Below are positions 3,725 to 60,283 of a stretch of 64,000 nt of DNA, piece after piece. The notes beneath the pieces were generated by a model. It did not search any database. It was given only the letters and a program-made list of their open reading frames with translations, and was not told the origin of the DNA. A program made the position numbers and the translations under genes. Within the stretch, counting starts at the first letter, position 1, and every line of letters starts with the position of its first letter. The stretch comes from a virus: positions 1 through 64,000 of the IMG/VR virus record IMGVR_UViG_3300010231_000003; one strand, written 5' to 3'.

Positions 3725-5386
3725 TCAGTTGTTAAATGTCAGTTTGAATGGCGAGTCATTCAGTTTCAGCTTGTACGGTGACAGCGTTAGCGTAATCGAG
3801 AACTTGTCTCCCGATGCCGTGTAATGCAGTCCGCCTTCCGTGATACCGGATACCGTCGAACGCCCTTCAGCGTTTGCGAAAGCCGATGCTACCGAAGCCG
3901 CGATTGCCTGTACTTGAGCTGCCGATACCGAGATACCTTCGGCTCCGTAGATAGCGACCGACAATCCCCCGACGTTTGCAAGACCCGTAGCTGCACCAGA
4001 AGCGCATGCCAGAATCACGCCACCACCGTTAGCTGCTGACGTACCAGACGTTGTACCGCTCGTTGCTGCGCGTGCTACGCTGCTGCCTGAACCTGAAGCT
4101 GATCCCGACGCATTCGCTACTGCGCTGTTTGTCGATGCTCCACTTCCAGATGCCGATGCACTACCAACGGCCGATGCAATGGCGTTGTAGAACGCGCTCG
4201 CGATAGCTGCTGCACTCGACGTACCAACTGCTGTCCCGCTTGCCGATCCAGATGCCGGGGTCAACGCTGATCCCGATCCCGATACGGACGACGTTCCGGC
4301 TGTTCCGCCAGCTACCGGGAATAGCGATACGCCACTTCCTGTGCCTCCGGCAGAGCCGACAGTGTTTGCCTGCACGCTCCAGATGGAATACGCGTTACCA
4401 GATACCGTAGCCGTGCTTGTGCTTGCGCCACTCGTCAGGTACACCGACACACCGTTTGCGGCGTTCGTAGAGCTTCCTGATGTACTTCCGTCCGCATAGA
4501 ACAGACTGATTGTCGAACTCGCTAGAGCTGACGTACCAGTTGAGCTTCCGACAGCGTTTGCGATGGCCCTAGCAACTGCTGTTAGGTTTGCTACACCTAC
4601 GGAACTACCTGATGCGGATGTAATCGTTGGTCCGCCTGCCGTCGCCGTAGCGTAGTCCACTTCGATGTAGTCATCCTCGAAGTCGATGAACAGTTGCCAC
4701 GGGTTAGCGTGAAGTGATGCCATCTCCGCGTCGGATAGTGTACGAGCCCATGCAGCTACCATACCGATGCCGCCGCCCAGCCACCATCCTGCCGTTGACG
4801 AGGCGCGTGCACCGATGGAGATAGGGATTGCGTAGGTGGGCGCGATGAGGTTTGTCGGCGTTGCGGCCTGTCCAAGTACACCGTTCTTGAAGCATGCGGT
4901 ACGTGTCGGGCTCGCCGTGGCTCCCATCGTGAACCCGCCTGCCAATTCCGCCGCCGTGAACGCTGACGAAGTACACACACCAGTTGTCGCGGCTGACGTA
5001 TCAAACGGGATAAAGTTGACCTTACCGGAATCAAGTCGGAACTGGAAGTAACGTGGACTACCGTTGTCTAGGTCAATTACGTTGTACGTAGCACCTGTAG
5101 CGGCCGGTGTTGTTGCCGCCACTGCAAACAGACTATACGTCGTGGTGTTGATTCCATTGGCTCCACCGATGTTATACGCGGAGAAGCTACTGCTGTTCAA
5201 CTTCGCGCCAGTGCCGAATGGCAGTGAGACTTGGGAGGCGTTTCTGTAATACGTGCTGCGATCCCCATTTACACAGAATCCGGTTGCGCTGGCTCCGTGC
5301 ACGAATGCGAAAGCAAGACCCCGTGTAATAGGATTCGTCCAATCAATTGCGGCGATGCCTTGTGGTTGTTTACGAATCCTAGCCAT
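3725..5386 (-). CDS. fibre/decoration-like structural protein with a long Ala/Ser/Gly/Thr-rich repeat region
   Basis: 553 aa. The N-terminal ~220 aa look globular (lectin/LamG-like is a guess). They are followed by ~300 aa of low-complexity GSGSASGTA-type repeats. Confidence 0.7.
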   Translation of the reverse strand: MARIRKQPQGIAAIDWTNPITRGLAFAFVHGASATGFCVNGDRSTYYRNASQVSLPFGTGAKLNSSSFSAYNIGGANGINTTTYSLFAVAATTPAATGATYNVIDLDNGSPRYFQFRLDSGKVNFIPFDTSAATTGVCTSSAFTAAELAGGFTMGATASPTRTACFKNGVLGQAATPTNLIAPTYAIPISIGARASSTAGWWLGGGIGMVAAWARTLSDAEMASLHANPWQLFIDFEDDYIEVDYATATAGGPTITSASGSSVGVANLTAVARAIANAVGSSTGTSALASSTISLFYADGSTSGSSTNAANGVSVYLTSGASTSTATVSGNAYSIWSVQANTVGSAGGTGSGVSLFPVAGGTAGTSSVSGSGSALTPASGSASGTAVGTSSAAAIASAFYNAIASAVGSASASGSGASTNSAVANASGSASGSGSSVARAATSGTTSGTSAANGGGVILACASGAATGLANVGGLSVAIYGAEGISVSAAQVQAIAASVASAFANAEGRSTVSGITEGGLHYTASGDKFSITLTLSPYKLKLNDSPFKLTFNN

Positions 5387-6706: not shown

Positions 6707-6781
6707 TGGCGAACAGGGCTGGATTCGAACCAACAAAAGCGGATTTGGAGTCACGCCGTTTTACCGTTAAACTACCTGAAC
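6707..6781 (-). tRNA. tRNA-Trp(CCA)-like, irregular
   Basis: Hand-folded. Canonical D arm (GTTT/AAAC) and T arm (GTTGG TTCGAAT CCAGC), loop CTCCAAA, encoded CCA. The anticodon stem needs a bulged U and the acceptor stem has two U-U mismatches. Confidence 0.45.
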
Positions 6782-6788
6782 ATTATGT

Positions 6789-6865
6789 TGGCACCGATAG
6801 AACGATTCGAACGTTCACTGTACAGGGTCAAAACCTGCTGCCTCTACCAGTTGGGCTATATCGGA
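6789..6865 (-). tRNA. tRNA-Gln(UUG)
   Basis: T arm GAACG TTCGAAT CGTTC, anticodon arm GCAGG TTTTGAC CCTGT, encoded CCA. Position 1-72 is U-U. Confidence 0.75.
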
Positions 6866-6875
6866 CTAGAATTCT

Positions 6876-6951
6876 TGGTAGTCCCACCGAGGATCGAACT
6901 CGGATTAGTGGATTATCGGTCCACCGTTTTAACCAGTTAAACTACAGGACA
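6876..6951 (-). tRNA. tRNA-Ile(GAU)
   Basis: D stem GTTT/AAAC, anticodon arm GTGGA CCGATAA TCCAC, T arm CCGAG TTCGATC CTCGG, encoded CCA. C at position 33 and U-U at 1-72 are unusual. Confidence 0.7.
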
Positions 6952-7054
6952 ATCGATGTGGTTCCTTTTCACCACCAAGCCATGTACAGTTAGCACCATC
7001 ACGCCGTTCTTTAGCAAGGTAGCGCTCCCTGCTCAATATACGGCCAACCTATTC

Positions 7055-7150
7055 TGGCGGTGACGGGGTAGAGTCGAACTCCCAAGGCTGTATCGCTACA
7101 ACTCACACGGTTTTCAAGACCGGCACCGTCGCCCATCGGTTTGCGTCACC
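7055..7150 (-). tRNA. tRNA-Ser(UGA), long variable arm
   Basis: Perfect acceptor GGTGACG/CGTCACC, G73, CCA. Loop CTTGAAA. Long extra arm. T stem has a bulged A. 96 nt. Confidence 0.8.
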
Positions 7151-7161
7151 ATATTCTGTTT

Positions 7162-7251
7162 TGGCGGAGAATGTGCGATTCGAACGCACGGACCCCGAGC
7201 GGAGCCTACAGGTTAGCAACCTGCTGCAATCGGCCTCTCTGCCAATTCTCC
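7162..7251 (-). tRNA. tRNA-Ser(GCU), long variable arm
   Basis: Acceptor GGAGAAT/ATTCTCC, anticodon arm GCAGG TTGCTAA CCTGT, T arm GTGCG TTCGAAT CGCAC, CCA. 90 nt. Confidence 0.85.
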
Positions 7252-7256
7252 ATGTT

Positions 7257-7331
7257 TGGCACGTCATGCAGGAGTTGAACCCGCATTTCCGGGTTCGTAG
7301 CCCAGCGTACTATCCATTGTACTAACGACGT
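7257..7331 (-). tRNA. tRNA-Arg(ACG)
   Basis: Acceptor ACGTCGT/ATGACGT, anticodon arm CTGGG CTACGAA CCCGG, T arm GCGGG TTCAACT CCTGC, CCA. Confidence 0.85.
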
Positions 7332-7338
7332 ATTATCT

Positions 7339-7412
7339 TGGACGCGATAGCGAGATTTTAACTCGCCTTCGAAGCTTTGCAGGCAACTACCTAGTCACTC
7401 GGCCATATCGCG
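7339..7412 (-). tRNA. tRNA-Cys(GCA), irregular
   Basis: Perfect acceptor CGCGATA/TATCGCG, loop CTGCAAA, CCA. Two U-U mismatches in the anticodon stem and an odd T loop TTAAAAT. Confidence 0.6.
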
Positions 7413-7417
7413 GGTTC

Positions 7418-7497
7418 TGGTGGAGAACATCGGATTCGAACCGATCTGATTAGCCTACTTGCAAGGCAGGTGTCCACTCCCAGCAGACCCGTTCCCC
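7418..7497 (-). tRNA. tRNA-Ala(UGC)
   Basis: Acceptor GGGGAAC/GTTCTCC with the G3-U70 Ala identity pair, anticodon arm CCTGC CTTGCAA GTAGG, T arm ATCGG TTCGAAT CCGAT, CCA. 8-nt variable loop gives 80 nt. Confidence 0.7.
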
Positions 7498-7501
7498 ATA
7501 A

Positions 7502-7912
7502 TCAGTTTCCCGATCTGGCGTACTGCGCACGCCTCTTTTCGGGAGTATAAATTCTTTTCTTCAAAGCTGCCTTAGCCGCTTTGCAAGGATCGCATCGGCA
7601 TCCTTTTGCGTACATGGTAGTGCTGCCACATTTAGCCGTTAGCTCAGGCTTTCGCCCTGCTGCTGTATTGCAAGCTAGATGGCTGTACGCGATATTATCG
7701 AGCGAGAAAAAGTTCTTAACCGGGTCAGAGCTATCTAGCCAAGCTTCTTTGTGCTCGATTGACAGTGTTTCCCTTGTTACTTTCTCGCCGCATCGGAAAC
7801 AGGTATCTTTTCCTGCCTTTACAACGAAGTCGAACAGCAAGTCCTTGACTAGTCTGTTACTCGCAGTGCTAGGATTCATACCTAGCTGCTCTTTCATCTT
7901 TTCGATTTTCAC
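7502..7912 (-). CDS. HNH homing endonuclease inside the tRNA array
   Basis: 136 aa with CFRCGEKV..IEHKEAW..AYSHLACN (HNH-type Cys/His motif). Inserted between tRNA-Ala and tRNA-Val. Confidence 0.75.
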   Translation of the reverse strand: MKIEKMKEQLGMNPSTASNRLVKDLLFDFVVKAGKDTCFRCGEKVTRETLSIEHKEAWLDSSDPVKNFFSLDNIAYSHLACNTAAGRKPELTAKCGSTTMYAKGCRCDPCKAAKAALKKRIYTPEKRRAQYARSGN

Positions 7913-7941
7913 GACTATCCTATGATGTCTTATGTGTAATT

Positions 7942-8015
7942 TGGTACTCCCTGTAAGAATCGAACTTACGTAATCGCCGTGTAAAGACGAAGTTCTACCA
8001 TTGAACTAAAGGAGC
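7942..8015 (-). tRNA. tRNA-Val(UAC)
   Basis: D arm GTTC AATGGTA GAAC, anticodon arm TCGTC TTTACAC GGCGA, T arm GTAAG TTCGATT CTTAC, CCA. Confidence 0.85.
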
Positions 8016-8022
8016 ATTGTTA

Positions 8023-8098
8023 TGGTATCCCGTGCGAGACTTGAACTCGGCATTTGCGGATTGAAAGTCCACCGTCCTGACCTTTAGACGAACGAGAT
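8023..8098 (-). tRNA. tRNA-Glu(UUC)
   Basis: Acceptor ATCTCGT/ACGGGAT, anticodon arm GTGGA CTTTCAA TCCGC, T loop TTCAAGT, CCA. Confidence 0.8.
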
Positions 8099-8099
8099 A

Positions 8100-8185
8100 T
8101 GGTGCGTCGGGAAGGATTCGAACCTCCACGTTCAAGACGACCACGGGGTTACAGCCCGGTGCCCTACCGAATAGGCGTCCAACGC
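8100..8185 (-). tRNA. tRNA-Tyr(GUA), long variable arm
   Basis: Acceptor GCGTTGG/CCGACGC, loop CTGTAAC, extra arm, T arm GGAGG TTCGAAT CCTTC, CCA. 86 nt. Confidence 0.85.
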
Positions 8186-8195
8186 ATTGTTTGTT

Positions 8196-8271
8196 TGGTG
8201 CAGAAGGATGGTATCGAACCATCATCTCCGATTTTTCAGACCGGCGCTAAGACCTCATCAGCTACTTCTGC
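8196..8271 (-). tRNA. tRNA-Phe(GAA)
   Basis: Perfect acceptor GCAGAAG/CTTCTGC, anticodon arm CCGGT CTGAAAA ATCGG, T arm GATGG TTCGATA CCATC, CCA. Confidence 0.85.
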
Positions 8272-8272
8272 A

Positions 8273-8346
8273 TGGTGTGACGCTGGGTTTCAATCCCGAT
8301 CCCTTAGTTTCACAGACTAAGATGCTCTCATTACACTATCGTCACC
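8273..8346 (-). tRNA. tRNA-His(GUG)
   Basis: Extra 5' G (G-1) before the acceptor, anticodon arm TTAGT CTGTGAA ACTAA, CCA. T loop ATTGAAA is atypical. Confidence 0.75.
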
Positions 8347-8352
8347 ATTGTT

Positions 8353-8430
8353 TGGTGGGAGCACTGGGACTTGAACCCAGAACCTATCGGTTAAAAGCCG
8401 AGTGCTCTAAACCAATTGAGCTATACTCCC
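8353..8430 (-). tRNA. tRNA-Lys(UUU)
   Basis: Acceptor GGGAGTA/TGCTCCC, D arm GCTC..GAGC, loop CTTTTAA, T arm CTGGG TTCAAGT CCCAG, CCA. Confidence 0.85.
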
Positions 8431-8431
8431 G

Positions 8432-8509
8432 TGGTACGCAAGGTGGGATTCGAACCCACAAGACGACAGGGTTTGAGCCTGCGGCGTATGCCGGTTCCGC
8501 CACTCACGC
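8432..8509 (-). tRNA. tRNA-Leu(CAA) with a short variable loop
   Basis: Anticodon arm GCAGG CTCAAAC CCTGT, T arm GTGGG TTCGAAT CCCAC, A73, CCA. Acceptor has three G-U pairs. Variable region is only 6 nt, which is unusual for bacterial-type Leu. Confidence 0.6.
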
Positions 8510-8614
8510 ATTGTAAATGAGGGTGCTCTGTCCACTGAGCTACCGAACGGGCTATTAACCACTACCGGGACGGATTCGAACCGTCGTCTCCCTACGCTCG
8601 TTACTACTGCTGTT
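8510..8614 (-). pseudogene. two tRNA fragments: a 3' half followed by an unrelated 5' half
   Basis: 8614-8566 carries a T arm plus acceptor strand (GACGG TTCGAAT CCGTC CCGGTAG). 8555-8512 carries an acceptor strand, a canonical D arm and the loop ATTTACA (CGTTCGG TA GCTCAGTGGACAGAGC A CCCTC ATTTACA). The acceptor strands do not pair and neither piece folds into a full cloverleaf. Confidence 0.4.
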
Positions 8615-8696
8615 TGGTAGGCAAGGAGAGATTCGAACTCTCAAAAGCCCTGCTTCTAAGGCAGGTAGGTGTACCGTTCCCATTAGCCACTCGCCC
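8615..8696 (-). tRNA. tRNA-Leu(UAG) with a short variable loop
   Basis: Perfect anticodon arm CCTGC CTTAGAA GCAGG, T arm GAGAG TTCGAAT CTCTC, A73, CCA. 22-nt D region and a 6-nt variable loop. Confidence 0.65.
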
Positions 8697-8849
8697 AAAT
8701 TCTTGCTACCATTTCTGTCAGGTTGGTAGCGACCTGTCCTTGTCGGGATTTCCCTGCCCTGCACGGGCCGAGACTGTTTGACGAGAGGCGTAGTTACACG
8801 GACTGGACACCGCCTGATAGGCTTCTCTTTCCTACGATTGTCGTCAACT

Positions 8850-8923
8850 TGGAGCGGGGTGCGAGAATCGAACTCGCCTCATTAGCTTGGAAGGCTAAGG
8901 CACAGCCACTATACCAAACCCGC
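8850..8923 (-). tRNA. tRNA-Gly(UCC)
   Basis: Anticodon arm TTAGC CTTCCAA GCTAA, T arm GCGAG TTCGATT CTCGC, acceptor GCGGGTT/ACCCCGC, CCA. Confidence 0.85.
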
Positions 8924-8930
8924 ATTGTTC

Positions 8931-9005
8931 TGGCGACTCTAGGGAGAATTGAACTCCCGTGCTCGGATCGACAATCCGGCGTAATAACCACTATACGATA
9001 GAGCC
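8931..9005 (-). tRNA. tRNA-Asp(GUC)
   Basis: Acceptor GGCTCTA/TAGAGTC, loop TTGTCGA, T arm GGGAG TTCAATT CTCCC, G73, CCA. Confidence 0.85.
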
Positions 9006-9007
9006 AT

Positions 9008-9292
9008 TTATTTAATCAGCTTCCGTACCAGACGGAAGTTGTTTGCTACCACTACGACGTACACTGCGCACAGTGCCGCGAGGATAGCAGGCAGTTGCAT
9101 CAGGAACGCATACGCCAGAGCCAGCACTACCAGCTTCGGCAGGATGAGCCCTGCTACCGTTCCTACCTTCTCGATCATAAAACGCATGACAGGGTTCGCC
9201 TCGTGTGCTACACTGGCATCTAGCAAGCGTTTCGTGGAGTACACGTCGCACATCTGGAGCACACACAGGGCTACAAACAAAATGATTGACAT
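9008..9292 (-). CDS. small multi-pass membrane protein embedded in the tRNA array
   Basis: Start at ATG 9292 (MSIILFVALCVLQMCDVYST..) after aaggagagaag. 94 aa with 3 hydrophobic segments. Confidence 0.65.
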   Translation of the reverse strand: MSIILFVALCVLQMCDVYSTKRLLDASVAHEANPVMRFMIEKVGTVAGLILPKLVVLALAYAFLMQLPAILAALCAVYVVVVANNFRLVRKLIK

Positions 9293-9309
9293 CTTCTCTC
9301 CTTTATTCT

Positions 9310-9396
9310 TGGCTGGCAAGGCTGGCTTCGAACCAGCAAGTGCATTTCTGCGCCTGATTAACAGTCAGGTAGGTCTACCAATTCCCCCACATGCCA
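9310..9396 (-). tRNA. tRNA-Asn(GUU) with a Leu-like body and long variable arm
   Basis: Perfect anticodon arm CCTGA CTGTTAA TCAGG, G73, CCA. D arm GGGGAATTGGTAGACC and a 15-nt extra arm (GCA GAAA TGC) resemble class II Leu tRNAs. 87 nt. Confidence 0.65.
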
Positions 9397-9398
9397 AT

Positions 9399-9472
9399 TG
9401 GTTGCGGATGCCAGAGTCGAACTGGACCTCCGGGTTATGAGCCCATAGTGCTTACCGTTACACCACACCGCA
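9399..9472 (-). tRNA. tRNA-Met(CAU)
   Basis: Loop CTCATAA above three G-C pairs (an initiator-like feature), T loop TTCGACT, CCA. The base of the acceptor stem is imperfect. Confidence 0.7.
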
Positions 9473-9572
9473 ATTGTACGACAGTTCTGTTTCTCGGCCG
9501 TCTTCGCCTCAGTGACTTATGATTTCGTCACGCCGCTTCTGCGATTGCTCTGCTACAGCGACAAGTACCAAC

Positions 9573-9601
9573 ATAATAACATACGTAGTGCTACTTGTCA
9601 A
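9573..9601 (-). promoter_or_regulatory. sigma70-type promoter inside the tRNA array
   Basis: Minus strand reads TTGACA-agtagcactacgtatgt(17)-TATTAT, between tRNA-Pro and tRNA-Met. Confidence 0.65.
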
Positions 9602-9625
9602 GCTTTGCGCTTACGCGCTGAATTC

Positions 9626-9701
9626 TGGTCTGGGTGGGTGGGATCGAACCACCGGCCTCAAGCTTCCAAAGCTCGCCGTCTACCGCTGACATTACACCCA
9701 G
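9626..9701 (-). tRNA. tRNA-Pro(UGG)
   Basis: Perfect acceptor CTGGGTG/CACCCAG (C1-G72), anticodon arm CGAGC TTTGGAA GCTTG, T arm GGTGG TTCGATC CCACC, CCA. Confidence 0.85.
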
Positions 9702-9702
9702 A

Positions 9703-9778
9703 TGGTGCCCCCGGCAGGAATCGAACCCGCGACCTTCGGATTACAAATCCGCTGCTCTACCTGCTGAGCTACAAGGGC
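9703..9778 (-). tRNA. tRNA-Thr(UGU)
   Basis: D arm GCTC AGCAGGTA GAGC, loop TTTGTAA, T arm GCGGG TTCGATT CCTGC, CCA. Confidence 0.85.
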
Positions 9779-10423: not shown

Positions 10424-10452
10424 ATCTTACACTACGGAGCCTTATTTGTCAA
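10424..10452 (-). promoter_or_regulatory. sigma70-type promoter driving a 330-nt leader plus the HNH gene
   Basis: Minus strand reads TTGACA-aataaggctccgtagtg(17)-TAAGAT, overlapping the stop codon of the upstream gene. Confidence 0.6.
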
Positions 10453-10987
10453 GTTTTTGCTCAATTGGCCTTGACTTGCCCCACCACTCTAGGTTAGAGA
10501 CATGATTATTCGTCACGTCTTTGTCCTTGTGGCGTACGTTGCGACGGTTCTCCGGGTTAGGGAGCCACGCCAGTGCGACAGCACGGTGGAGGGTAAGCAT
10601 CGAGCTACCACCGCCTACGTACATATACTGCTTCTTCGAAGCCTTCAGCCACTTGCTATGCAGGTGCGACCATACACGGCCATCCTGCGTCACTTCCCAT
10701 TTTCCTTCGAAGCCGGGGACCGGGCGGGTATCCGACTCTGCGAACTCCGCTACGAGGGCTGCACGAGCCTTGCGACGGGCTTCCGTAGCTTCTACTACGT
10801 CCTTTCCTACCTTCGAGATGCGTTTATCGCGCTTCAGTGTCTTGCGAACGAGACGAAGTTGCTCCACAATGTCCGTACGGCCGTTGGCTGTGTACGTCTT
10901 GATGGCGATGTGAAGAGCCTGCCGAGAAATTCCCTTGGCTCGTTCTACTGCTTCGTCCAAGGTTAGCTCTTTCCAGCTCTTGGCCAT
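10442..10987 (-). CDS. HNH_3/NUMOD-type homing endonuclease with an N-terminal HTH
   Basis: WEVTQDGRVWSH..LHRAVALAWLPNPENRRNVRHKDKDVTNNHVSNLEWW. Start moved to ATG 10987 after ccaaggaaaccaac. Confidence 0.7.
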   Translation of the reverse strand: MAKSWKELTLDEAVERAKGISRQALHIAIKTYTANGRTDIVEQLRLVRKTLKRDKRISKVGKDVVEATEARRKARAALVAEFAESDTRPVPGFEGKWEVTQDGRVWSHLHSKWLKASKKQYMYVGGGSSMLTLHRAVALAWLPNPENRRNVRHKDKDVTNNHVSNLEWWGKSRPIEQKLDK

Positions 10988-11010
10988 GTTGGTTTCCTTG
11001 GTAATATTGG

Positions 11011-11349
11011 TCATACTTCTTGAATTGTATGCATGTCGAGTCGTGGAGCACTGGGCTTCTTATCTTCGTCGCCGGGAATCAACGGGGTCTTCGGACCAGT
11101 TGCCCTCATCTCTGCGATGAGACGGTTCAGTTCGTCCTTGTTGATCTGGTCGGTGATACGAATCTGTAGGTCGATGATCGCCTCTGCCAGCTTCAAACGC
11201 TCCTTCAGTGGAACGTTCTCTTCGTCTTCCATCTTACTCGCCATCAGATCGATTGCAGCGGGCGTAATCCTTCCTAGCTGCTTGGCAAGGTCTGCCAACT
11301 CGTGCTTCTTCTTTACGAACATTTGGCCTTCCCTTAGTACTACTGCCAT
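11011..11349 (-). CDS. hypothetical protein
   Basis: Start at ATG 11349 (MAVVLREGQMF..) after caggagtatagc, downstream of a consensus promoter. Confidence 0.65.
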   Translation of the reverse strand: MAVVLREGQMFVKKKHELADLAKQLGRITPAAIDLMASKMEDEENVPLKERLKLAEAIIDLQIRITDQINKDELNRLIAEMRATGPKTPLIPGDEDKKPSAPRLDMHTIQEV

Positions 11350-12708: not shown

Positions 12709-13377
12709 ATGAAAAAGCTCATCGGATATACCCGCGTCTCCCACAAAGAACAGGGCAAGACGAAGAACGGTCTGGAAGCGCAAGCGGAGGCAATCCGCTT
12801 GTTCGCTCACTACAACGGGTACGAACTCGTTGAAATCGTTCAGGAAGTCCGTACGGGCGCTGACAATGAGCGTCCTGTACTGGCTGAAATCACGAAGCGT
12901 GCCGCAAAGATCGGTGCATACGTCGTCGTGAACAAGCTGGACCGTCTGTCCCGCGATGCCCTGTTCATACTCCAGTACGTCAAGACCAATCCCCGCTTCA
13001 TCGTCACGATGTTGGGCGAAGGCGTTGACCCGTTCATGCTTCACATCTACGCCGGTTTGGCGGAGAAAGAGCGGGCGATGATTTCTGAGCGTACCCGTGC
13101 AGCCCTTCAGGCTAAACGCGCACGTGGCGAAACGTTGGGGGCCAAGGAATCGGTTCGCGTGAAGGCTACCGCCGCATCGCACGTGTCGATGAAGGCGCAG
13201 TCTGACGCATTCGCGGATCGCGTCAAGCCGATGATCCAGCGTATGATCCTCGCCGGGATGTCTTACCGTGCGATGGCCTCTGAGCTAAATGCGCTGAACG
13301 TCAAAACGGCTCGTGGAGGCGAGTGGCATGCTATGACGGTGAGGAACATCGTGGAACGCTTTAAGGAGGTCGCATGA
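12709..13377 (+). CDS. small serine recombinase (resolvase/invertase family)
   Basis: N-terminal IGYTRVSHKEQ catalytic-serine motif, ..VVVNKLDRLSRD.., and a C-terminal HTH-like tail. 222 aa. Confidence 0.85.
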   Translation: MKKLIGYTRVSHKEQGKTKNGLEAQAEAIRLFAHYNGYELVEIVQEVRTGADNERPVLAEITKRAAKIGAYVVVNKLDRLSRDALFILQYVKTNPRFIVTMLGEGVDPFMLHIYAGLAEKERAMISERTRAALQAKRARGETLGAKESVRVKATAASHVSMKAQSDAFADRVKPMIQRMILAGMSYRAMASELNALNVKTARGGEWHAMTVRNIVERFKEVA

Positions 13378-13613
13378 AATTCGCTATAGTCGCTGCTGTT
13401 GTCGTCGCAATGGCATTCTGGATCGCCATGCAACACACGGGCATCCCGCGTGACTTGTTCAACGCTGCGGTGCTGCTAATGTTTTGCCCGGACACTAACC
13501 CGCTGAGCCCTAGCTGCGGCGAAGTCACGTTAGATTTCGTTCTGCGGAGGGTGTTCTGGACCGCTACGGCCGTTCTCGTGCTGGTGACGGTATGGAGGGC
13601 GCCGCGAGATTAA
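13374..13613 (+). CDS. small membrane protein
   Basis: 79 aa, hydrophobic, ATGA overlap with the recombinase stop. Confidence 0.6.
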   Translation: MKFAIVAAVVVAMAFWIAMQHTGIPRDLFNAAVLLMFCPDTNPLSPSCGEVTLDFVLRRVFWTATAVLVLVTVWRAPRD

Positions 13614-13681
13614 AAGCGCCGCAGGCGGGCCGCAAAAATTTTTTAACGCCGGGAGTCCCGGCATCAACCAAGGAGAAGAAA

Positions 13682-14215
13682 ATGACCAGCTATGAATACG
13701 ATCTGACCATCACCATGACCTCGGGCTTCGCGTTGGGGGCTCACGCAGGCCAGAAACGCAAATACACGGGCGAGGACTACTACCATCACCCGAAACGCGT
13801 CGCTGAAATCCTCAACCAGCACGGCCACAAAGACATCGTGACGCTTCAAGCGGCTCTGCTGCACGACACGGTGGAGGACACGCACGTCACGCACGAGCAA
13901 ATCGTTGAGTATTTCGGCAACGACGTGGCCGTCCTCGTGGGCTGGTTGACGAAAACGGAGTGGGATGCCCCGGCTCCGCCTCGTGCAGAACGCAAAGCCT
14001 TCGAAATCGCTCGCCTGAAGGACGCTCCGGTCGTCGTCAAGACGATCAAGCTGGCCGACCGCTACGACAATCTGCCGTCCGTGATCGAGCACGATCCGAA
14101 ATTCGCTCCCGTCATCGTTGCGGAGACGCGTGAGCTGCTGGACGGAGCCCTCGTCGGCGGTTGCCCGGTGCTGTGGGCGAAGCTGGACGCCATCGTGCGT
14201 GAATTTCAGCAATAA
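13682..14215 (+). CDS. HD-domain phosphohydrolase, SpoT/Mesh1-like (p)ppGpp hydrolase fold
   Basis: GAHAGQKRKYTGEDYYHHP..LHDTVEDT motif. Start at ATG 13682 after accaaggagaagaaa. Confidence 0.7.
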   Translation: MTSYEYDLTITMTSGFALGAHAGQKRKYTGEDYYHHPKRVAEILNQHGHKDIVTLQAALLHDTVEDTHVTHEQIVEYFGNDVAVLVGWLTKTEWDAPAPPRAERKAFEIARLKDAPVVVKTIKLADRYDNLPSVIEHDPKFAPVIVAETRELLDGALVGGCPVLWAKLDAIVREFQQ

Positions 14216-14666: not shown

Positions 14667-15875
14667 ATGCAAGAACGTACCACTGCGAAGCAAGTAATTT
14701 ACGAAGAAGGCTCCCGTCCGATCAAAATCTGGACGAATGACATCGAGCCGGAAGCGCTGACGCAGCTCAAGAACCTGTCCCGCCTGCCGTTCATCGCGAA
14801 AGAAGGCGTTGCCTGTATGCCGGATGTCCACGCAGGCATCGGAAGCACCGTTGGCACGGTGATTGCGACGGACAGGGCTGTCATCCCGGCCGCTGTCGGC
14901 GTCGATATCGGCTGTGGCATGGTCGCTACCCGTCTGTCGCTGAAGGCACACCAGTTGCCGGACTCGCTGGCACGCATCCGCAGCGAAATCGAACGTGTTG
15001 TACCGATGGGCACGGGCGGCGAGCACAAGGATGACCGCACCATCGCCTTCCGTGCAAGCCGTCTGAACGATTCCGCCCCGGATCAGGTTTCCCGTATCGT
15101 TGGCGATCACTACCTGAAGAAAGCGGCTGGACAGCTCGGCACGCTCGGCTCCGGCAACCACTTCATCGAAATTTGTATCGACCAGAACGACGACGTGTGG
15201 GTCATGCTGCACTCCGGCTCCCGTGGCATCGGCAACATGATCGGTAAGTACTACATCGAGAAGGGCAAGGAGCTGATGAACCAGTTCCACATTACCCTGC
15301 CGGATGGCGATCTGGCGTACCTGCCTGAAGGTACGGACCTGTTCGAAGACTACGTAGCTGCTGTCCAGTGGGCGCAGGACTACGCGATGGAGAACCGCAA
15401 GGCGATGCTGCAAGCCGTGCTGGATGTGCTCCGCAAGGAGATTCCGATCCAGTTCGGCATCACGGAAGAAGCAATCAACTGCCACCACAACTACGTTACG
15501 AAGGAGAACCACTTTGGAAAGAACCTCTGGATCACACGAAAGGGAGCCATCAAGGCCGGAAAAGACGACCTCGGAATCATCCCCGGAAGCATGGGCCAGC
15601 GTTCTTATATCGTGCGAGGGAAAGGAAACAAGGAATCGTATTGTTCGTGTTCTCACGGAGCGGGGCGTAAGATGTCTCGTTCCGCCGCCCGAAAGAAGTT
15701 CACCCTCGCTGACCTCGCCGCTCAGACCGCAGGAGTGGAATGCCGAAAGGACGACGCCGTACTGGATGAAATTCCGGGCTCGTACAAGGACATCGACGTG
15801 GTGATGGACAACCAGAAATCGCTCGTGGAAGTGGTTCACGTCCTGAAGCAAGTGATGTGCTGTAAAGGGGCGTAA
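14667..15875 (+). CDS. rtcB: RtcB RNA 3'-phosphate ligase
   Basis: 402 aa with GSGNHFIE, HSGSRGIG, CHHNY and a C-terminal ..HVLKQV.. region, matching the RtcB signature. Confidence 0.9.
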   Translation: MQERTTAKQVIYEEGSRPIKIWTNDIEPEALTQLKNLSRLPFIAKEGVACMPDVHAGIGSTVGTVIATDRAVIPAAVGVDIGCGMVATRLSLKAHQLPDSLARIRSEIERVVPMGTGGEHKDDRTIAFRASRLNDSAPDQVSRIVGDHYLKKAAGQLGTLGSGNHFIEICIDQNDDVWVMLHSGSRGIGNMIGKYYIEKGKELMNQFHITLPDGDLAYLPEGTDLFEDYVAAVQWAQDYAMENRKAMLQAVLDVLRKEIPIQFGITEEAINCHHNYVTKENHFGKNLWITRKGAIKAGKDDLGIIPGSMGQRSYIVRGKGNKESYCSCSHGAGRKMSRSAARKKFTLADLAAQTAGVECRKDDAVLDEIPGSYKDIDVVMDNQKSLVEVVHVLKQVMCCKGA

Positions 15876-21127: not shown

Positions 21128-21613
21128 TTAGTTGTTCCAGAAATAATGTCCGTCCGATTCGAAAAACGATTCGATCATTAATTCATGAGCGTAATGTTTC
21201 CAGTCGATGAAACTAAACATCGGGTGATTATCATCGATAAGGCCCGCTTCTATTGCATGTTCCATTGCGAAGTCTTCAGGCGAATTGTATTTCCCCCTGA
21301 AATTCTCTTGTGCATCTTTAAACTCGCATTCACCATTATTGGCGATATATGCGGCCCACATTTCACGGTCACTTTCACTTAATGCGGCAAGCTCGAAAAC
21401 CTTTTCATCAATCGATGATTCGGAAATCAAGTCTTTCGGAATGTCTTCCCAGTCTTGAAACATGAATTCCGGATCGTGTTCATTTTTATGCAATTCCTTA
21501 CATGCCTCGTAAAACTCGTCTTTATCGGCATAGTCTTCAATGTCCAGCCATGCACCGTAAAGATTGCCGCTATTGTATTTGCCGTACGTGCCGACATAAA
21601 CGCGCATAGTCAT
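21128..21613 (-). CDS. ardA: ArdA-like antirestriction protein
   Basis: N-terminus VYVGTYGKYNSGNLYGAWLDIEDYADKDEFYEACKELHKNEHDPEFMFQDWEDIP matches my recollection of the ArdA family. Acidic, 161 aa. Confidence 0.7.
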   Translation of the reverse strand: MTMRVYVGTYGKYNSGNLYGAWLDIEDYADKDEFYEACKELHKNEHDPEFMFQDWEDIPKDLISESSIDEKVFELAALSESDREMWAAYIANNGECEFKDAQENFRGKYNSPEDFAMEHAIEAGLIDDNHPMFSFIDWKHYAHELMIESFFESDGHYFWNN

Positions 21614-33078: not shown

Positions 33079-34239
33079 ATGGCTGAAATCAATCGCAAAC
33101 TGGCGTCCGTACGCCGCATCAAACAAATCCTGCCCATCGCGGGTGCAGACAAGATCGAACTGGCCCTCGTGGACGGCTGGCAGGTAGTGGTAAAGAAGGG
33201 GGAGTTCACGGAGGGCAGTCTCGCCGTGTATTTCGAAATCGACAGTTTTGTCCCGGACACCATCGCTCCGTTCCTGACGAAAGAAGGCTACGATCCGAAG
33301 GAATTCAACGGCGTCAAGGGCGAGCGCCTGAAGACGATCAAGCTGCGTAAGCAACTGTCGCAAGGTCTGCTGCTTCCGCTGGCTGTTGCCGAAGCATCCG
33401 GCAAGCGCTTCAACGAAGGCGACGACGTAACCGAACTGCTCGGCGTACAGAAGTGGGAAGCCGAAGAGAAGGCTACCAACACGAGCGGAAACCTGCTGCC
33501 GTCGAAGACGCGTTCGTTCCCGTACTTCATCAAGAAGACGGACCAAGAGCGTGCGCAGAACTACGGCCCGATGATCGAACAGAACCTCGACACGAAGTTC
33601 GAAACAACGGTGAAGAAGGACGGCTCCAGCCTGACGGTGTTCCGTATCGTGCCGGACAGCACGTTCTACGAAGATGCGAAGGAAATGGTGCATGGCAAGG
33701 ACTCGCTGTTCACCAAGATCAAGAACTTCGTGCTGCGTAAGAAGCCGCAGCCGGTGTACGGCCTGTGTTCGCGTAACGTCCTGCTGCCGTTGGAAGGTAA
33801 CAGTAACTTCCACGTGGCTGCAAAGCCGCTCATCGAGAAGCTGAAGAACGAAGTGTCCATTGCGCTCGAAGGCTCCATCGCCCTGCAAGGCGAGCTGGTT
33901 GCACCGGACATTCAGGGCAACTACGAGAAAGTGGACGGCGTGGAATTCCACCTGTTCGACATCTTCGACATCGATAAGCAGAAGTACATGCTTCCGACCG
34001 ACCGTATCGTGTTCGCGGACATCTACAGCATCCCGCACGCTACCATCGTGGACCGTGGCACGCTGCGTAACATCCTGCAACTGAAGGATGGTGAAGATGT
34101 CGTGCAAAAGCTCTTGACGTACGCGTCGGGCGAAGGCGATAATCCGGGTGTGATGCGTGAAGGCGTCGTGTTCAAGGCGAACGACAAGGACTTCAGCTTC
34201 AAGGTCATTTCGAACGAATACCTTCTGCACAAGGGTTAA
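33079..34239 (+). CDS. RNA ligase (DRB0094/Rnl5-like family)
   Basis: N-terminus KLASVRRIKQILPIAGADKIELALVDGWQVVVKKGEF and nucleotidyl-transfer motif VKKDGSS. 386 aa. Confidence 0.7.
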   Translation: MAEINRKLASVRRIKQILPIAGADKIELALVDGWQVVVKKGEFTEGSLAVYFEIDSFVPDTIAPFLTKEGYDPKEFNGVKGERLKTIKLRKQLSQGLLLPLAVAEASGKRFNEGDDVTELLGVQKWEAEEKATNTSGNLLPSKTRSFPYFIKKTDQERAQNYGPMIEQNLDTKFETTVKKDGSSLTVFRIVPDSTFYEDAKEMVHGKDSLFTKIKNFVLRKKPQPVYGLCSRNVLLPLEGNSNFHVAAKPLIEKLKNEVSIALEGSIALQGELVAPDIQGNYEKVDGVEFHLFDIFDIDKQKYMLPTDRIVFADIYSIPHATIVDRGTLRNILQLKDGEDVVQKLLTYASGEGDNPGVMREGVVFKANDKDFSFKVISNEYLLHKG

Positions 34240-50273: not shown

Positions 50274-50349
50274 GGGTCGTTAGCTCAGCGGATAGAGCAC
50301 GGGATTTCTACTCCCGGTGTCGTAGGTTTGAATCCTACACGACCTACCA
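50274..50349 (+). tRNA. tRNA-Arg(UCU)
   Basis: GGGTCGT TA GCTC AGCGGATA GAGC A CGGGA TTTCTAC TCCCG GTGTC GTAGG TTTGAAT CCTAC ACGACCT A CCA. Confidence 0.9.
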
Positions 50350-53398: not shown

Positions 53399-54221
53399 AT
53401 GGACCGTCCTCGCGGTCAAGCTGGACGAGGCGAAGATGAGCTGGCGAGAAATCGCGGAGATGCTTGGCAAGCCTAAGAGCACGGTGAGTGATTTCCTTCG
53501 CTCGTACCACGCTCAAAAGGCGATGGCGGCAGGTAACGACGGCTACGACAACAGCCGTATCCTGTTCATCTCGGACCAGCACATCCCGTACCATCACGAA
53601 CAGATGTTCGACTTCCTCGAATACCTGAAGCGTAAGTACGACCCGACACGAGTTGTCAACGTCGGGGACGAGCTTGACAAACACGCGATGAGCTACCATG
53701 ACCATGACCCGGACCTTCCGAGTGCTGGTGATGAGCTGGAGCGAGCCCTACCGCACGTCAAGCGTATGGAAACGATGTTCCCTAACATGGACATCATCGA
53801 GTCGAACCACGGCTCCCTACACTTGCGTAAGGCGAAGAGCCACGGCTTTTCGAAGCGTTACATCCGTAGCTACAACGAAATCCTCGAAGTGGGAGATGGC
53901 TGGAAGTGGCACAACGATCTGACGCTGGACATGAGCAAGTGGAACCGACCAGACGTTTATGTTCACCACGGGAAGACGAAACGTGCTATCATGACGAGTA
54001 AGGCTATGTCGATGTCGCATGTATGCGGACACTACCACGAATCGTTCGGTATCGAATACTGGGCGAATCCGAAAGGTCTGTACTTCGGCATGAACGTAGG
54101 CTGTCTAATCGATGACCGAAAACTGGCGTTCGCTTACAATAAAATAAACCCTCATCGCCCAATTATCGGCACAGGGCTTATCATTGAAGGTGAACCGATT
54201 CTAGAAGCGATGAAGCTGTGA
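53382..54221 (+). CDS. calcineurin-like metallophosphoesterase with an N-terminal HTH
   Basis: ISDQHIPYHH, VGDELD, SNHGS, HHGKT and GHYHE motifs. N-terminus SWREIAEMLGKPKSTVSDFLR. Confidence 0.8.
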   Translation: MSNTIEWTVLAVKLDEAKMSWREIAEMLGKPKSTVSDFLRSYHAQKAMAAGNDGYDNSRILFISDQHIPYHHEQMFDFLEYLKRKYDPTRVVNVGDELDKHAMSYHDHDPDLPSAGDELERALPHVKRMETMFPNMDIIESNHGSLHLRKAKSHGFSKRYIRSYNEILEVGDGWKWHNDLTLDMSKWNRPDVYVHHGKTKRAIMTSKAMSMSHVCGHYHESFGIEYWANPKGLYFGMNVGCLIDDRKLAFAYNKINPHRPIIGTGLIIEGEPILEAMKL

Positions 54222-54766
54222 TTAAATGGGACGACTGGTATTACTATGATGAAACCAGCCCGTCCTGTTTGAGATGGGCTGTGAACAGGTACAAGGGAAG
54301 AGGGCACGCAATACTTCTTATTGCAAAGGATGCTGTAGCAGGCTCGTTTGACACATCCAGAGGTAGCGGGTACTATGTAGTGTTCCTGCATAAGAAGGGC
54401 TACACCGCTCACAGAGTAATCTGGGAGATGCACAACGGTCCAATACCTGACGACCTAATGATCGACCATATAAACGGCGACAGCAGTGATAACAGGTTGC
54501 CTAATTTGCGGCTGGTGACGAAGAGGGTGAATGCAAGGAACCAGAAAAAGCGGTCTTGCAACACAAGCGGCGTCACAGGCGTAAGTAAGACGACCAAGGA
54601 CGGGAACGACTACTGGATAGCGTTCTGGACCGATGACAAGGGAAAAGGTCAACGGAAGTCGTTCAACTGCTGCATCGGTGAACGGGCTGCGTTTACGCTG
54701 GCCTGCGAATACAGAGCAAGAATGATCGCAACACACGAGGGCTATACCGAACGGCATGGCCTATAA
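54218..54766 (+). CDS. HNH_3 plus AP2-domain homing endonuclease
   Basis: IDHINGDSSDNRLPNLRLVTKRVNARN followed by SGVTGVSKT..YWIAFW (AP2-like). GTG start. Confidence 0.8.
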   Translation: MIKWDDWYYYDETSPSCLRWAVNRYKGRGHAILLIAKDAVAGSFDTSRGSGYYVVFLHKKGYTAHRVIWEMHNGPIPDDLMIDHINGDSSDNRLPNLRLVTKRVNARNQKKRSCNTSGVTGVSKTTKDGNDYWIAFWTDDKGKGQRKSFNCCIGERAAFTLACEYRARMIATHEGYTERHGL

Positions 54767-59658: not shown

Positions 59659-59852
59659 AACGGAACTCCCCGGAGTGGAAAAGGATGATAGGCCACAGGC
59701 AACTGAATGATGACGGGTTTACGTACCCGTACGGCCGGTTCCCGTTTAACTACAACACAAGGTCTGCCAGTATTAAACGGCAGATTCGAAGCGACAAACG
59801 CGCTGTTCGTCAAGCTGAAACGCGCAGACTGGAAAAGGAGGAAGAACAATGA
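59655..59852 (+). CDS. hypothetical basic small protein
   Basis: 65 aa, ATGA coupling to the upstream gene. Confidence 0.5.
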   Translation: MKRNSPEWKRMIGHRQLNDDGFTYPYGRFPFNYNTRSASIKRQIRSDKRAVRQAETRRLEKEEEQ

Positions 59853-60283
59853 ACAAGATCGATTCGTTCAGGGGCGAGCATCGCTTCCTGTCTAACTTCT
59901 GGAACGTCTACGTGACCTATGACAGCGTTACGTACCCAACCGTAGAGCATGCCTACCAAGCTGCGAAGACGCTGGAGCCGGAGTTCCGTAGGGCTATCTG
60001 CTACGCTACGACAGGCGATGCGAAGCGTATGGGCCGTCAGGTTCCGATGCGCCCGGACTGGGAGACGGCTAAACTCGGCATCATGGACGGCCTGCTGCGT
60101 CAGAAGTTCAGTGACCCGGAGCTGGCGGAACGGTTGCTGGCTACGGGCGATGCCGAACTCATCGAAGGTAACACGTGGGGCGACTACTACTGGGGCGTAT
60201 GCAACGGGGAGGGTCAAAACTGGCTGGGTAAGCTGCTGATGGCTATCCGGGAAGACATTCGCAATTACGGAGGAACGAAGTGA
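59849..60283 (+). CDS. NADAR (YbiA/DUF1768) family protein
   Basis: GEHRFLSNFW..YPTVEHAYQAAK..GNTWGDYYWG signature. 144 aa. Confidence 0.85.
   Translation: MNKIDSFRGEHRFLSNFWNVYVTYDSVTYPTVEHAYQAAKTLEPEFRRAICYATTGDAKRMGRQVPMRPDWETAKLGIMDGLLRQKFSDPELAERLLATGDAELIEGNTWGDYYWGVCNGEGQNWLGKLLMAIREDIRNYGGTK

Follow-up and report, generated by a model that had tools for sequence, protein, structure and literature searches.

A probable asparagine tRNA on a tRNA-Leu-type class II body, conserved as a family in phage tRNA arrays

The window analyzed in the current work, 64,000 nucleotides (nt) covering positions 1 to 64,000 of IMG/VR virus record IMGVR_UViG_3300010231_000003, is a phage segment with genes for a portal protein, large terminase, head protein, DNA polymerase, primase-helicase, and ribonucleotide reductase. 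Its minus strand carries an array of 22 transfer RNA (tRNA) genes for all 20 amino acids (6710..9778), 20 of them called by ARAGORN and 2 found by Rfam only. The gene at 9310..9396 (minus strand) is the only tRNA for asparagine in this array, and it is a class II tRNA of 87 nt with the anticodon GUU and an encoded CCA. The textbook rule restricts the long variable arm in bacteria to the tRNAs for Leu, Ser, Tyr, and Sec. ARAGORN calls the gene tRNA-Asn(GTT), and the general tRNA model of Rfam matches it with 45.9 bits (E=2.8e-9), with 13 nt of the variable region counted as inserted. The assignment is also supported by a covarying family of such genes, described below.

All parts of the tRNA can be read directly from the minus strand. 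The acceptor stem is formed by UGGCAUG (9390..9396, beginning with U1) and CUUGCCA (9314..9320, ending with A72), and U8 and G9 link it to the D stem. The D arm (9371..9387) is of the tRNA-Leu type, with a GGG/CCU stem of 3 base pairs (bp), whose outermost pair is G.U, and an 11-nt loop, GAAUUGGUAGA. A single A separates it from the anticodon arm, CCUGA-CUGUUAA-UCAGG (9353..9369), a perfect stem with GUU at 9360-9362. The variable arm, C-GCA-GAAA-UGC-ACUU (9338..9352), is 15 nt long with a 3-bp stem and a GAAA loop, and its last U is U48, the partner of A15. The T arm, GCUGG-UUCGAAG-CCAGC (9321..9337), precedes the 3' acceptor strand, the discriminator G73 (9313), and CCA (9310-9312), which end the gene (9310..9313). 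Direct reading thus confirmed what an earlier sequence-only reading had reported: a perfect anticodon arm with GUU and G73, together with a Leu-type D arm and a 15-nt extra arm.

The general features of a tRNA are all present, including the 7-bp acceptor stem, the 5-bp T stem, the UUCRA T loop, U8, A14, G18G19, and U33. Compared with a canonical tRNA-Asn(GUU), the window tRNA shares GUU in a CUGUUAA loop, G73, U1:A72, the 7/5 acceptor/T branch, and the encoded CCA; it differs in the body. A class I Asn tRNA has a 4-bp D stem and a variable loop of 4-5 nt; in the window tRNA the D stem is 3 bp long with a Leu-type loop of 11 nt, the tertiary pair is A15-U48, and the variable arm has 15 nt. Escherichia coli tRNA-Asn has G15 and C48. 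The sequence-only reading had allowed for a better-scoring class I fold, but no canonical class I fold is possible at 87 nt. Single-sequence minimum free energy folding gave no cloverleaf (z=0.10), a result that is usual for tRNAs and uninformative.

Similar genes were collected from IMG/VR contigs with a pattern consisting of a Leu-type D loop, a set distance to a CUGUUAA loop, and a distant T loop. Among the 37 loci obtained, 31 were called Asn(GTT) tRNAs of 81-88 nt by ARAGORN. The same pattern, run on one genome each for 185,579 bacterial and archaeal species, gave 10 tRNAs (Asn(GUU), 81-88 nt) among the 40 matches listed. Seven of these 10 are located in contig stretches containing 14-31 tRNAs, in Planctomycetaceae and Isosphaeraceae metagenome-assembled genomes, Bradyrhizobium Ai1a-2, and Piscinibacter caeni; L051, L065, and L066, which make up the rest, are each the sole tRNA called in their stretch. 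Because 7 of the 10 listed lie in tRNA-dense stretches, the class II Asn design belongs mainly to dense, phage-like tRNA arrays and not to housekeeping sets, and a cellular housekeeping origin was rejected. BLAST against cultured phages found the design in the Caulobacter phages CcrColossus and CcrPW, annotated as tRNA-Asn, in Brevundimonas phage Bajun, and in the Pseudomonas syringae phiPsa374 group, in which the homologue is annotated tRNA-Asn with the note 'tRNA-Pseudo-GTT'.

After removal of duplicates, 40 distinct sequences remained from viral contigs, bacterial-genome arrays, CcrColossus, and the window, and 36 of the 40 were aligned for covariation. In this alignment, 95.2% of the cells of the proposed five-helix structure are paired, versus 65.4% in shuffles and 35-46% when the partner columns are slid, and changes on both sides occur at 22 of 24 pairs. 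The covariation score is 0.767, versus 0.183 in shuffles. All 3 pairs of the variable-arm helix show compensatory changes, with stems such as GCA/UGC, GUA/UAC, AGC/GCU, GAC/GUC, GUC/GAC, and GCC/GGC in different members and GUCUC/GAGAC in CcrColossus. The anticodon-stem pairs covary at 5/5 positions, and the T arm is 100% paired with double changes at 4/5 pairs. U8, A14, A15, G18, G19, U48, T54, T55, C56, G73, and the anticodon are invariant. Judged from these sequences, the design is old and conserved, a family rather than a one-off accident. The sequence-only reading had named conservation of the architecture as a regular phage Asn tRNA among the outcomes that would refute it, and 40 distinct copies display such conservation.

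These data also bear on whether the element serves as an adaptor at all. It might instead act as a decoy or sponge that occupies a defence nuclease of the host aimed at tRNAs, or be a pseudogene in decay, but this appears quite unlikely. The authors of the AriB study suggest that viral tRNAs, when overexpressed, might inhibit the nuclease (PMC12409363), the phiPsa374 homologue is called 'Pseudo' by tRNAscan-SE, the acceptor stem of the window tRNA has a U6.U67 mismatch, and the phage encodes a tRNA-repair and anti-restriction kit. Purifying selection on the family is strong, however, and each helix has compensatory changes, which rules out the pseudogene; the candidate was rejected on the pairing and double changes given above, the window tRNA having that single U.U mismatch only. 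A decoy would have no need for a conserved G73, U1:A72, encoded CCA, and exact GUU, and without this adaptor the array would lack asparagine.

The identity marks of the family are located in the anticodon and the acceptor end. GUU is found in 40/40 distinct copies, G73 in 39/40, and U1:A72 together with G73 in 37/40. The window tRNA has all three marks of asparagine identity: GUU (9360-9362), G73 (9313), and U1 (9396) paired with A72 (9314). The ordinary class I Asn tRNAs of the same arrays have U1:A72 with G73 in 6/6 cases. The Leu tRNAs of the same arrays have A73 in 38/40 and G1 in 35/40, and the commonest acceptor end of the Ser tRNAs is G1:C72 with G73 (19/30). The acceptor end goes with the anticodon, not with the body. 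In E. coli, Asn identity consists of the anticodon and G73 and can be transplanted into tRNA-Lys; in the indirect pathway of bacteria, U1-A72 is the determinant for the amidation of Asp-tRNA-Asn by GatCAB (PMC9976931). Host enzymes should thus accept the tRNA despite its body.

The body is that of a tRNA-Leu. The closest D arms outside asparagine belong to class II Leu tRNAs, and tRNA-Leu(CAA) of Ralstonia phage RSP15 is 87% identical over 54 nt spanning the D arm, anticodon stem, and variable arm. These three parts are near-identical in the two tRNAs; the window tRNA differs in having G73 instead of A73, U1:A72 instead of G1:C72, and GUU instead of NAA/NAG. Of the marks of a tRNA-Leu it has the class II core, but neither A73 nor a leucine anticodon (NAG or YAA). 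The sequence-only reading had proposed to compare isotype-specific models, and home-made covariance models for Leu and class I Asn were built from independent, neutrally sampled phage tRNAs; they are crude, with an effective sequence number below 3. With the Leu model the window tRNA scored 55.4 bits, below the Leu(CAA) gene of the array only and above Leu(UAG). With the class I Asn model it scored 38.2 bits and ranked 11th in the array. The clash between body and anticodon is as predicted, and one of the two proposals of that reading, a chimeric Asn tRNA, is supported by the Leu-type D arm, A15-U48, and variable arm standing with an Asn anticodon, discriminator, and first pair.

The other proposal was a Leu tRNA with a drifted anticodon, charged by LeuRS through its Leu-type body, so that AAC and AAU (AAY) would partly be read as leucine, like the nematode nev-tRNAs. 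The Leu tertiary core is fully kept (U8-A14, A15-U48, G18G19, and the 3-bp D stem), the Leu model outscores the Asn model, and bacterial LeuRS ignores the anticodon (PMC2377443). Mistranslation of this kind is nevertheless judged very unlikely. The exact GUU throughout the family and the near-universal G73, next to neighbouring Leu tRNAs that keep A73, do not fit it, and the conserved U1:A72 is unexplained by Leu identity. An A73G change lowers leucylation by Aquifex LeuRS 143-fold in kcat/Km (PMC2377443), and among the published antideterminants is G73 of E. coli tRNA-Ser, directed against LeuRS and TyrRS (PMC9976931). A nev-type tRNA would keep a Leu or Ser acceptor end under a foreign anticodon, whereas the window tRNA has U1:A72 with G73.

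A long variable arm with G73 might also make the tRNA a SerRS substrate, with AAY partly read as serine. In E. coli, however, a Leu-type D arm with A15-U48 orients the variable arm unlike that of tRNA-Ser, and the window tRNA is of the Leu type in both respects. The variable stem has 3 bp (3-5 bp across the family), versus about 6 bp in the two Ser tRNAs of the window, and the conserved U1:A72 is unlike the usual end of tRNA-Ser. For allo-tRNAs, the features cited as relevant to SerRS are G73 and a variable arm (PMC5389517), and an A73-to-G73 change is reported to give human tRNA-Leu serine acceptance. Taken with the short stem and the Leu-type geometry, serine acceptance must be considered extremely improbable.

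Comparison with the arrays of related phages, as the sequence-only reading had suggested, gave information on the Asn position itself. Three viral contigs (L081-L083), with terminases 92%, 72%, and 92% identical to that of the window, keep the order Thr-Pro-Met-[Asn]-Asp-Gly. In L083 the Asn slot is occupied by a class II Asn tRNA with the acceptor stem of the window copy, U.U mismatch included, and its variable arm, and its anticodon and T stems are fully compensated. In L082 the same slot holds an ordinary 76-nt Asn tRNA, in which the anticodon arm is that of the window and the T arm is that of L083. As this class I tRNA takes the slot of the class II tRNA, the two classes are interchangeable at one locus, and this exchange is the strongest in-silico argument that both do the same job; it also speaks against a leucine reading. 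In L081, whose terminase is 92% identical, the slot (4092-4168) contains an atypical element that resembles an Asn tRNA in having a CUGUUAA loop and that ends in ...GGACGGAG-CCA; it was rejected by ARAGORN and the Rfam tRNA model and scored only 24.4 bits with the tRNA-Sec model.

The array and the codon usage of the phage point in the same direction. Unless the class II tRNA serves asparagine, the array falls short of the full 20 amino acids; its composition thus supports the Asn role, and with this tRNA as the sole Asn tRNA of the set a drifted Leu tRNA would not be expected. AAC and AAU together make up 38 per 1000 codons (3.8%) and stand at conserved Asn positions, which again tells against mistranslation. 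When the terminase was aligned with a 43%-identical homologue, its AAY codons faced N at 7/20 positions and L at 0/20, and AAY therefore keeps its standard meaning, Asn, in this phage.

The window tRNA is thus most likely a functional asparagine tRNA, the only one of the phage, built on a tRNA-Leu-type class II scaffold, and the mis-decoding of AAY as leucine is predicted to be unlikely. Several observations weigh against a fully normal Asn role. All known E. coli-type LeuRS elements except A73 are present in the tRNA (A14, A15-U48, the G18G19 placement, and the variable-arm orientation), and residual leucylation may occur, perhaps at about 1% efficiency. AsnRS and AspRS are class II synthetases, which approach the tRNA from the variable-loop side, and the protruding arm could hinder them. 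Two family members, L051 and L065, have G1:C72. The closest homologue, L083 3831-3917, has C33 (CCGUUAA) where the near-universal U33 is expected. The U6.U67 mismatch in the acceptor stem of the window copy, which the sequence-only reading had passed over, is found also in L083 and L035, and the phiPsa374 homologue bears the tRNAscan-SE label already mentioned.

A functional Asn tRNA of this form may have arisen by alloacceptor remolding, in which the duplicate of a Leu tRNA gene in a phage took on a new identity. The re-assignment would have changed the anticodon to GUU, A73 to G73, and G1:C72 to U1:A72. By the published identity rules, acceptance by the host would not depend on the body, whether charging goes through AsnRS or through a non-discriminating AspRS and then GatCAB. 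G73 would largely shut out LeuRS, and the short 3-bp arm with its Leu-type geometry would exclude SerRS. The charged tRNA would then read AAC and AAU as asparagine.

Other members of the array are unusual as well. The sequence-only reading had pointed to two Leu tRNAs on the minus strand, Leu(CAA) (8432-8509) and Leu(UAG) (8615-8696), and the variable loop of each is indeed short, at about 6 nt. Both have A73, and Leu(CAA) keeps a Leu-type D arm; in L082 and L083 Leu(CAA) is 84 nt long with the variable arm present. Leu(UAG) has an over-long, aberrant D region with the anticodon at position 39, a D stem of 1 bp by ARAGORN, and an Rfam score of 36.7 bits. tRNA-Ala(UGC) (7418-7497, minus strand) is 80 nt long; its variable loop has 8 nt, and its D arm combines a 3-bp stem with an 11-nt loop. 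G3:U70 is kept, and L082 and L083 conserve this form of the tRNA. The two tRNAs missed by ARAGORN and found by Rfam are tRNA-Trp(CCA) (6710-6781, minus strand), with two acceptor U.U mismatches and an irregular anticodon stem, and tRNA-Cys(GCA) (7342-7412, minus strand). A 23rd tRNA, tRNA-Arg(UCU) (50274-50349, plus strand), stands alone amid replication genes, 40 kilobases from the array.

tRNA-Met ends at 9399, 2 nt upstream of the Asn tRNA. Upstream of this Met-Asn pair is a weak promoter-like site, TTGACA-17-TATTAT with an extended TG (9573..9601, minus strand; 11/12 consensus matches). Nine such sites were counted in the region versus 2.9 expected, and a terminator-like hairpin follows the last tRNA of the array; both are evidence at the level of consensus. 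A small predicted membrane protein (DUF5658, E=8.6e-9; 9008-9319, minus strand) is encoded between tRNA-Asn and tRNA-Asp. Its true start is likely an internal ATG near 9292, in which case the gene probably does not overlap the tRNA. HNH homing-endonuclease genes are found at 7502-7912 (minus strand), 10442-11014 (minus strand), and 54218-54766 (plus strand), the first of them within the array between Val and Ala, and a serine recombinase or invertase-like gene (12709-13377, plus strand) lies just beyond the tRNA array and the structural module. No phage-encoded synthetase was found among about 50 open reading frames scanned with PHROGs or Pfam, which covered the small frames in part. In a megablast search of cultured phages with the array, a close relative was absent, and the two short matches obtained were the size of a tRNA (84.6% and 88.5% identity). 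When 5,426 E. coli genomes were searched by BLAST with the tRNA, two matches came up, both tRNA-Leu, which at E=3 are too weak to serve as evidence.

Genes for tRNA repair and for countering host defences are carried in the same window. An HD_4-domain hydrolase (13592-14215, plus strand) adjoins the gene of an RtcB ligase (14667-15875, plus strand; Pfam, 414.8 bits), and a separate RNA ligase with PF09414 and PHA02142 OB domain matches is encoded at 33079-34239 (plus strand). An ArdA anti-restriction protein (21128-21613, minus strand; E=1.2e-24) and a NADAR-domain protein (59849-60283, plus strand; E=1.1e-24) were also found. The hydrolase and the two ligases form a tRNA-repair kit, and ArdA and the NADAR protein are candidates for counter-defence.

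In this setting the unusual body might itself be adaptive, as a refinement of the functional Asn tRNA: a Leu-type core and variable arm may let the tRNA escape a host tRNase, such as PARIS AriB, that reads the body of an ordinary tRNA-Asn. Among the tRNAs of E. coli, AriB cuts Lys(UUU), Thr(UGU), and Asn(GUU), and it needs contacts beyond the anticodon loop, including U16 and U17 of the D loop (PMC12409363). Variable arms are present on Lys(UUU) and Thr(UGU) of the relatives L082 and L083 too, and the phage encodes RtcB, RNA ligase, the HD_4 hydrolase, and ArdA. The Thr(UGU) tRNAs with a variable arm are 86-87 nt long (L082 3270-3356; L083 3242-3327), and the Lys(UUU) tRNAs are 88 nt long (L082 5208-5295; L083 6958-7045); their window counterparts are ordinary, at 76 nt for Thr and 78 nt for Lys. 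Because the D-arm types of Lys and Thr differ from that of the class II Asn, the arms of the three were probably acquired independently, a pattern that points to convergence.

Arrays with a class II Asn tRNA had long-arm forms in 9/28 Lys and 3/29 Thr tRNAs, versus 6/330 for other isotypes (p=3e-7, post hoc). In a neutral sample of 85 arrays, however, the enrichment was gone, with long-arm forms in Asn 3/45, Lys 4/58, and Thr 2/67, versus about 20/723 for the others. The enrichment of PARIS targets, post hoc in preselected arrays and without replication in the neutral 85, was demoted as support. Moreover, the AriB site UAAUC|A is present unaltered in the window tRNA, as is a UU in the D loop, and the class I Asn tRNA of L082 keeps the same site; escape through a change of the AriB cleavage site was rejected, as UAAUC|A is intact in the window tRNA. 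In view of the vanished enrichment and the kept site, defence escape is held only as a doubtful refinement of the asparagine reading. In its general form, the tentative idea is that phages may carry replacement tRNAs of switched class, which host synthetases would still charge and which body-reading tRNases such as PARIS AriB would miss; the same logic would cover arms added to Lys and Thr tRNAs and arms removed from Leu tRNAs.

The neutral sample also shows how variable arms are distributed in phage tRNAs generally. Gly, Arg, Met, Gln, Glu, Trp, Pro, and Ile(UAU) tRNAs with a variable arm make up 1-7% per isotype (neutral loci L093-L210; examples are at L112, L138, L144, and L193). Long-arm Ile(UAU) tRNAs, of 91-96 nt, amount to 4/54 and come from four loci, and the remaining isotypes with any have 1-2 each; no long-arm Asp, Val, or Cys tRNA was found in the 85 arrays. 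Variable-arm tRNAs outside Leu, Ser, and Tyr thus account for a few per cent in phage arrays. Leu tRNAs without a long arm are common, at 46/104 (about 44%) in the neutral sample and 25/40 in another sample.

Several known systems resemble the class II Asn tRNA in part. Nematode nev-tRNAs and eukaryotic V-arm tRNAs are likewise class II with an anticodon that belongs neither to Leu nor to Ser, and for nev-tRNAs the decoding of an alternative leucine code has been described (PMC3333845); noncanonical eukaryotic V-arm tRNAs are also attributed to Hamashima 2016, as cited in PMC5389517. The tRNA described here belongs to a phage and bacterial setting, not a eukaryotic one, and its acceptor identity is switched to the amino acid of the anticodon, so no recoding is expected and it is probably not a recoding case. 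Allo-tRNAs, or (8/4) tRNAs, share an odd architecture, a long variable arm, and an occurrence in phage tRNA clusters, but their branch is 8/4 or 9/3, their D arm resembles that of tRNA-Sec, and they are predicted to accept Ser (PMC5389517), whereas the window tRNA has the standard 7/5 branch and a Leu-like D arm. With the T5 tRNA-Lys, Thr, and Asn that evade PARIS, it shares a phage Asn(GUU) in a large array accompanied by repair and anti-restriction genes; the known escapes, however, are point substitutions in the anticodon stem-loop or the D loop (PMC12409363, PMC10264068), and evasion of the T5 type by the window tRNA is hypothetical. A class change as a means of escape is not described in the T5/PARIS papers, and the eLife paper does not mention the variable arm.

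The full-text literature searched, which lay outside subscription-only papers, yielded no account of a phage tRNA-Asn of class II, and GenBank homologues are filed merely as 'tRNA-Asn' or 'Pseudo'. The family is widespread in phage tRNA clusters and apparently undescribed. There is an annotation gap here, in which tRNAscan-SE labels a homologue 'Pseudo' and the ARAGORN label conceals the oddity.

If the exchange of the body is indeed an escape from tRNA-cutting defences, it would be a new mode of evasion beyond point mutations. Near-isogenic class I and class II pairs exist naturally, the window copy or that of L083 versus that of L082, and would make this idea cheaply testable. A conserved and widespread phage class II tRNA-Asn means that the long-arm rule is not absolute. 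Together with the rarer class II Lys, Thr, Met, Gln, and other tRNAs and the many arm-less Leu tRNAs, it suggests that body class and identity are separable in nature. The family offers a natural test case of how AsnRS, non-discriminating AspRS with GatCAB, EF-Tu, and modification enzymes handle a protruding arm, with a bearing on the rules of tRNA identity and on the design of orthogonal tRNAs.

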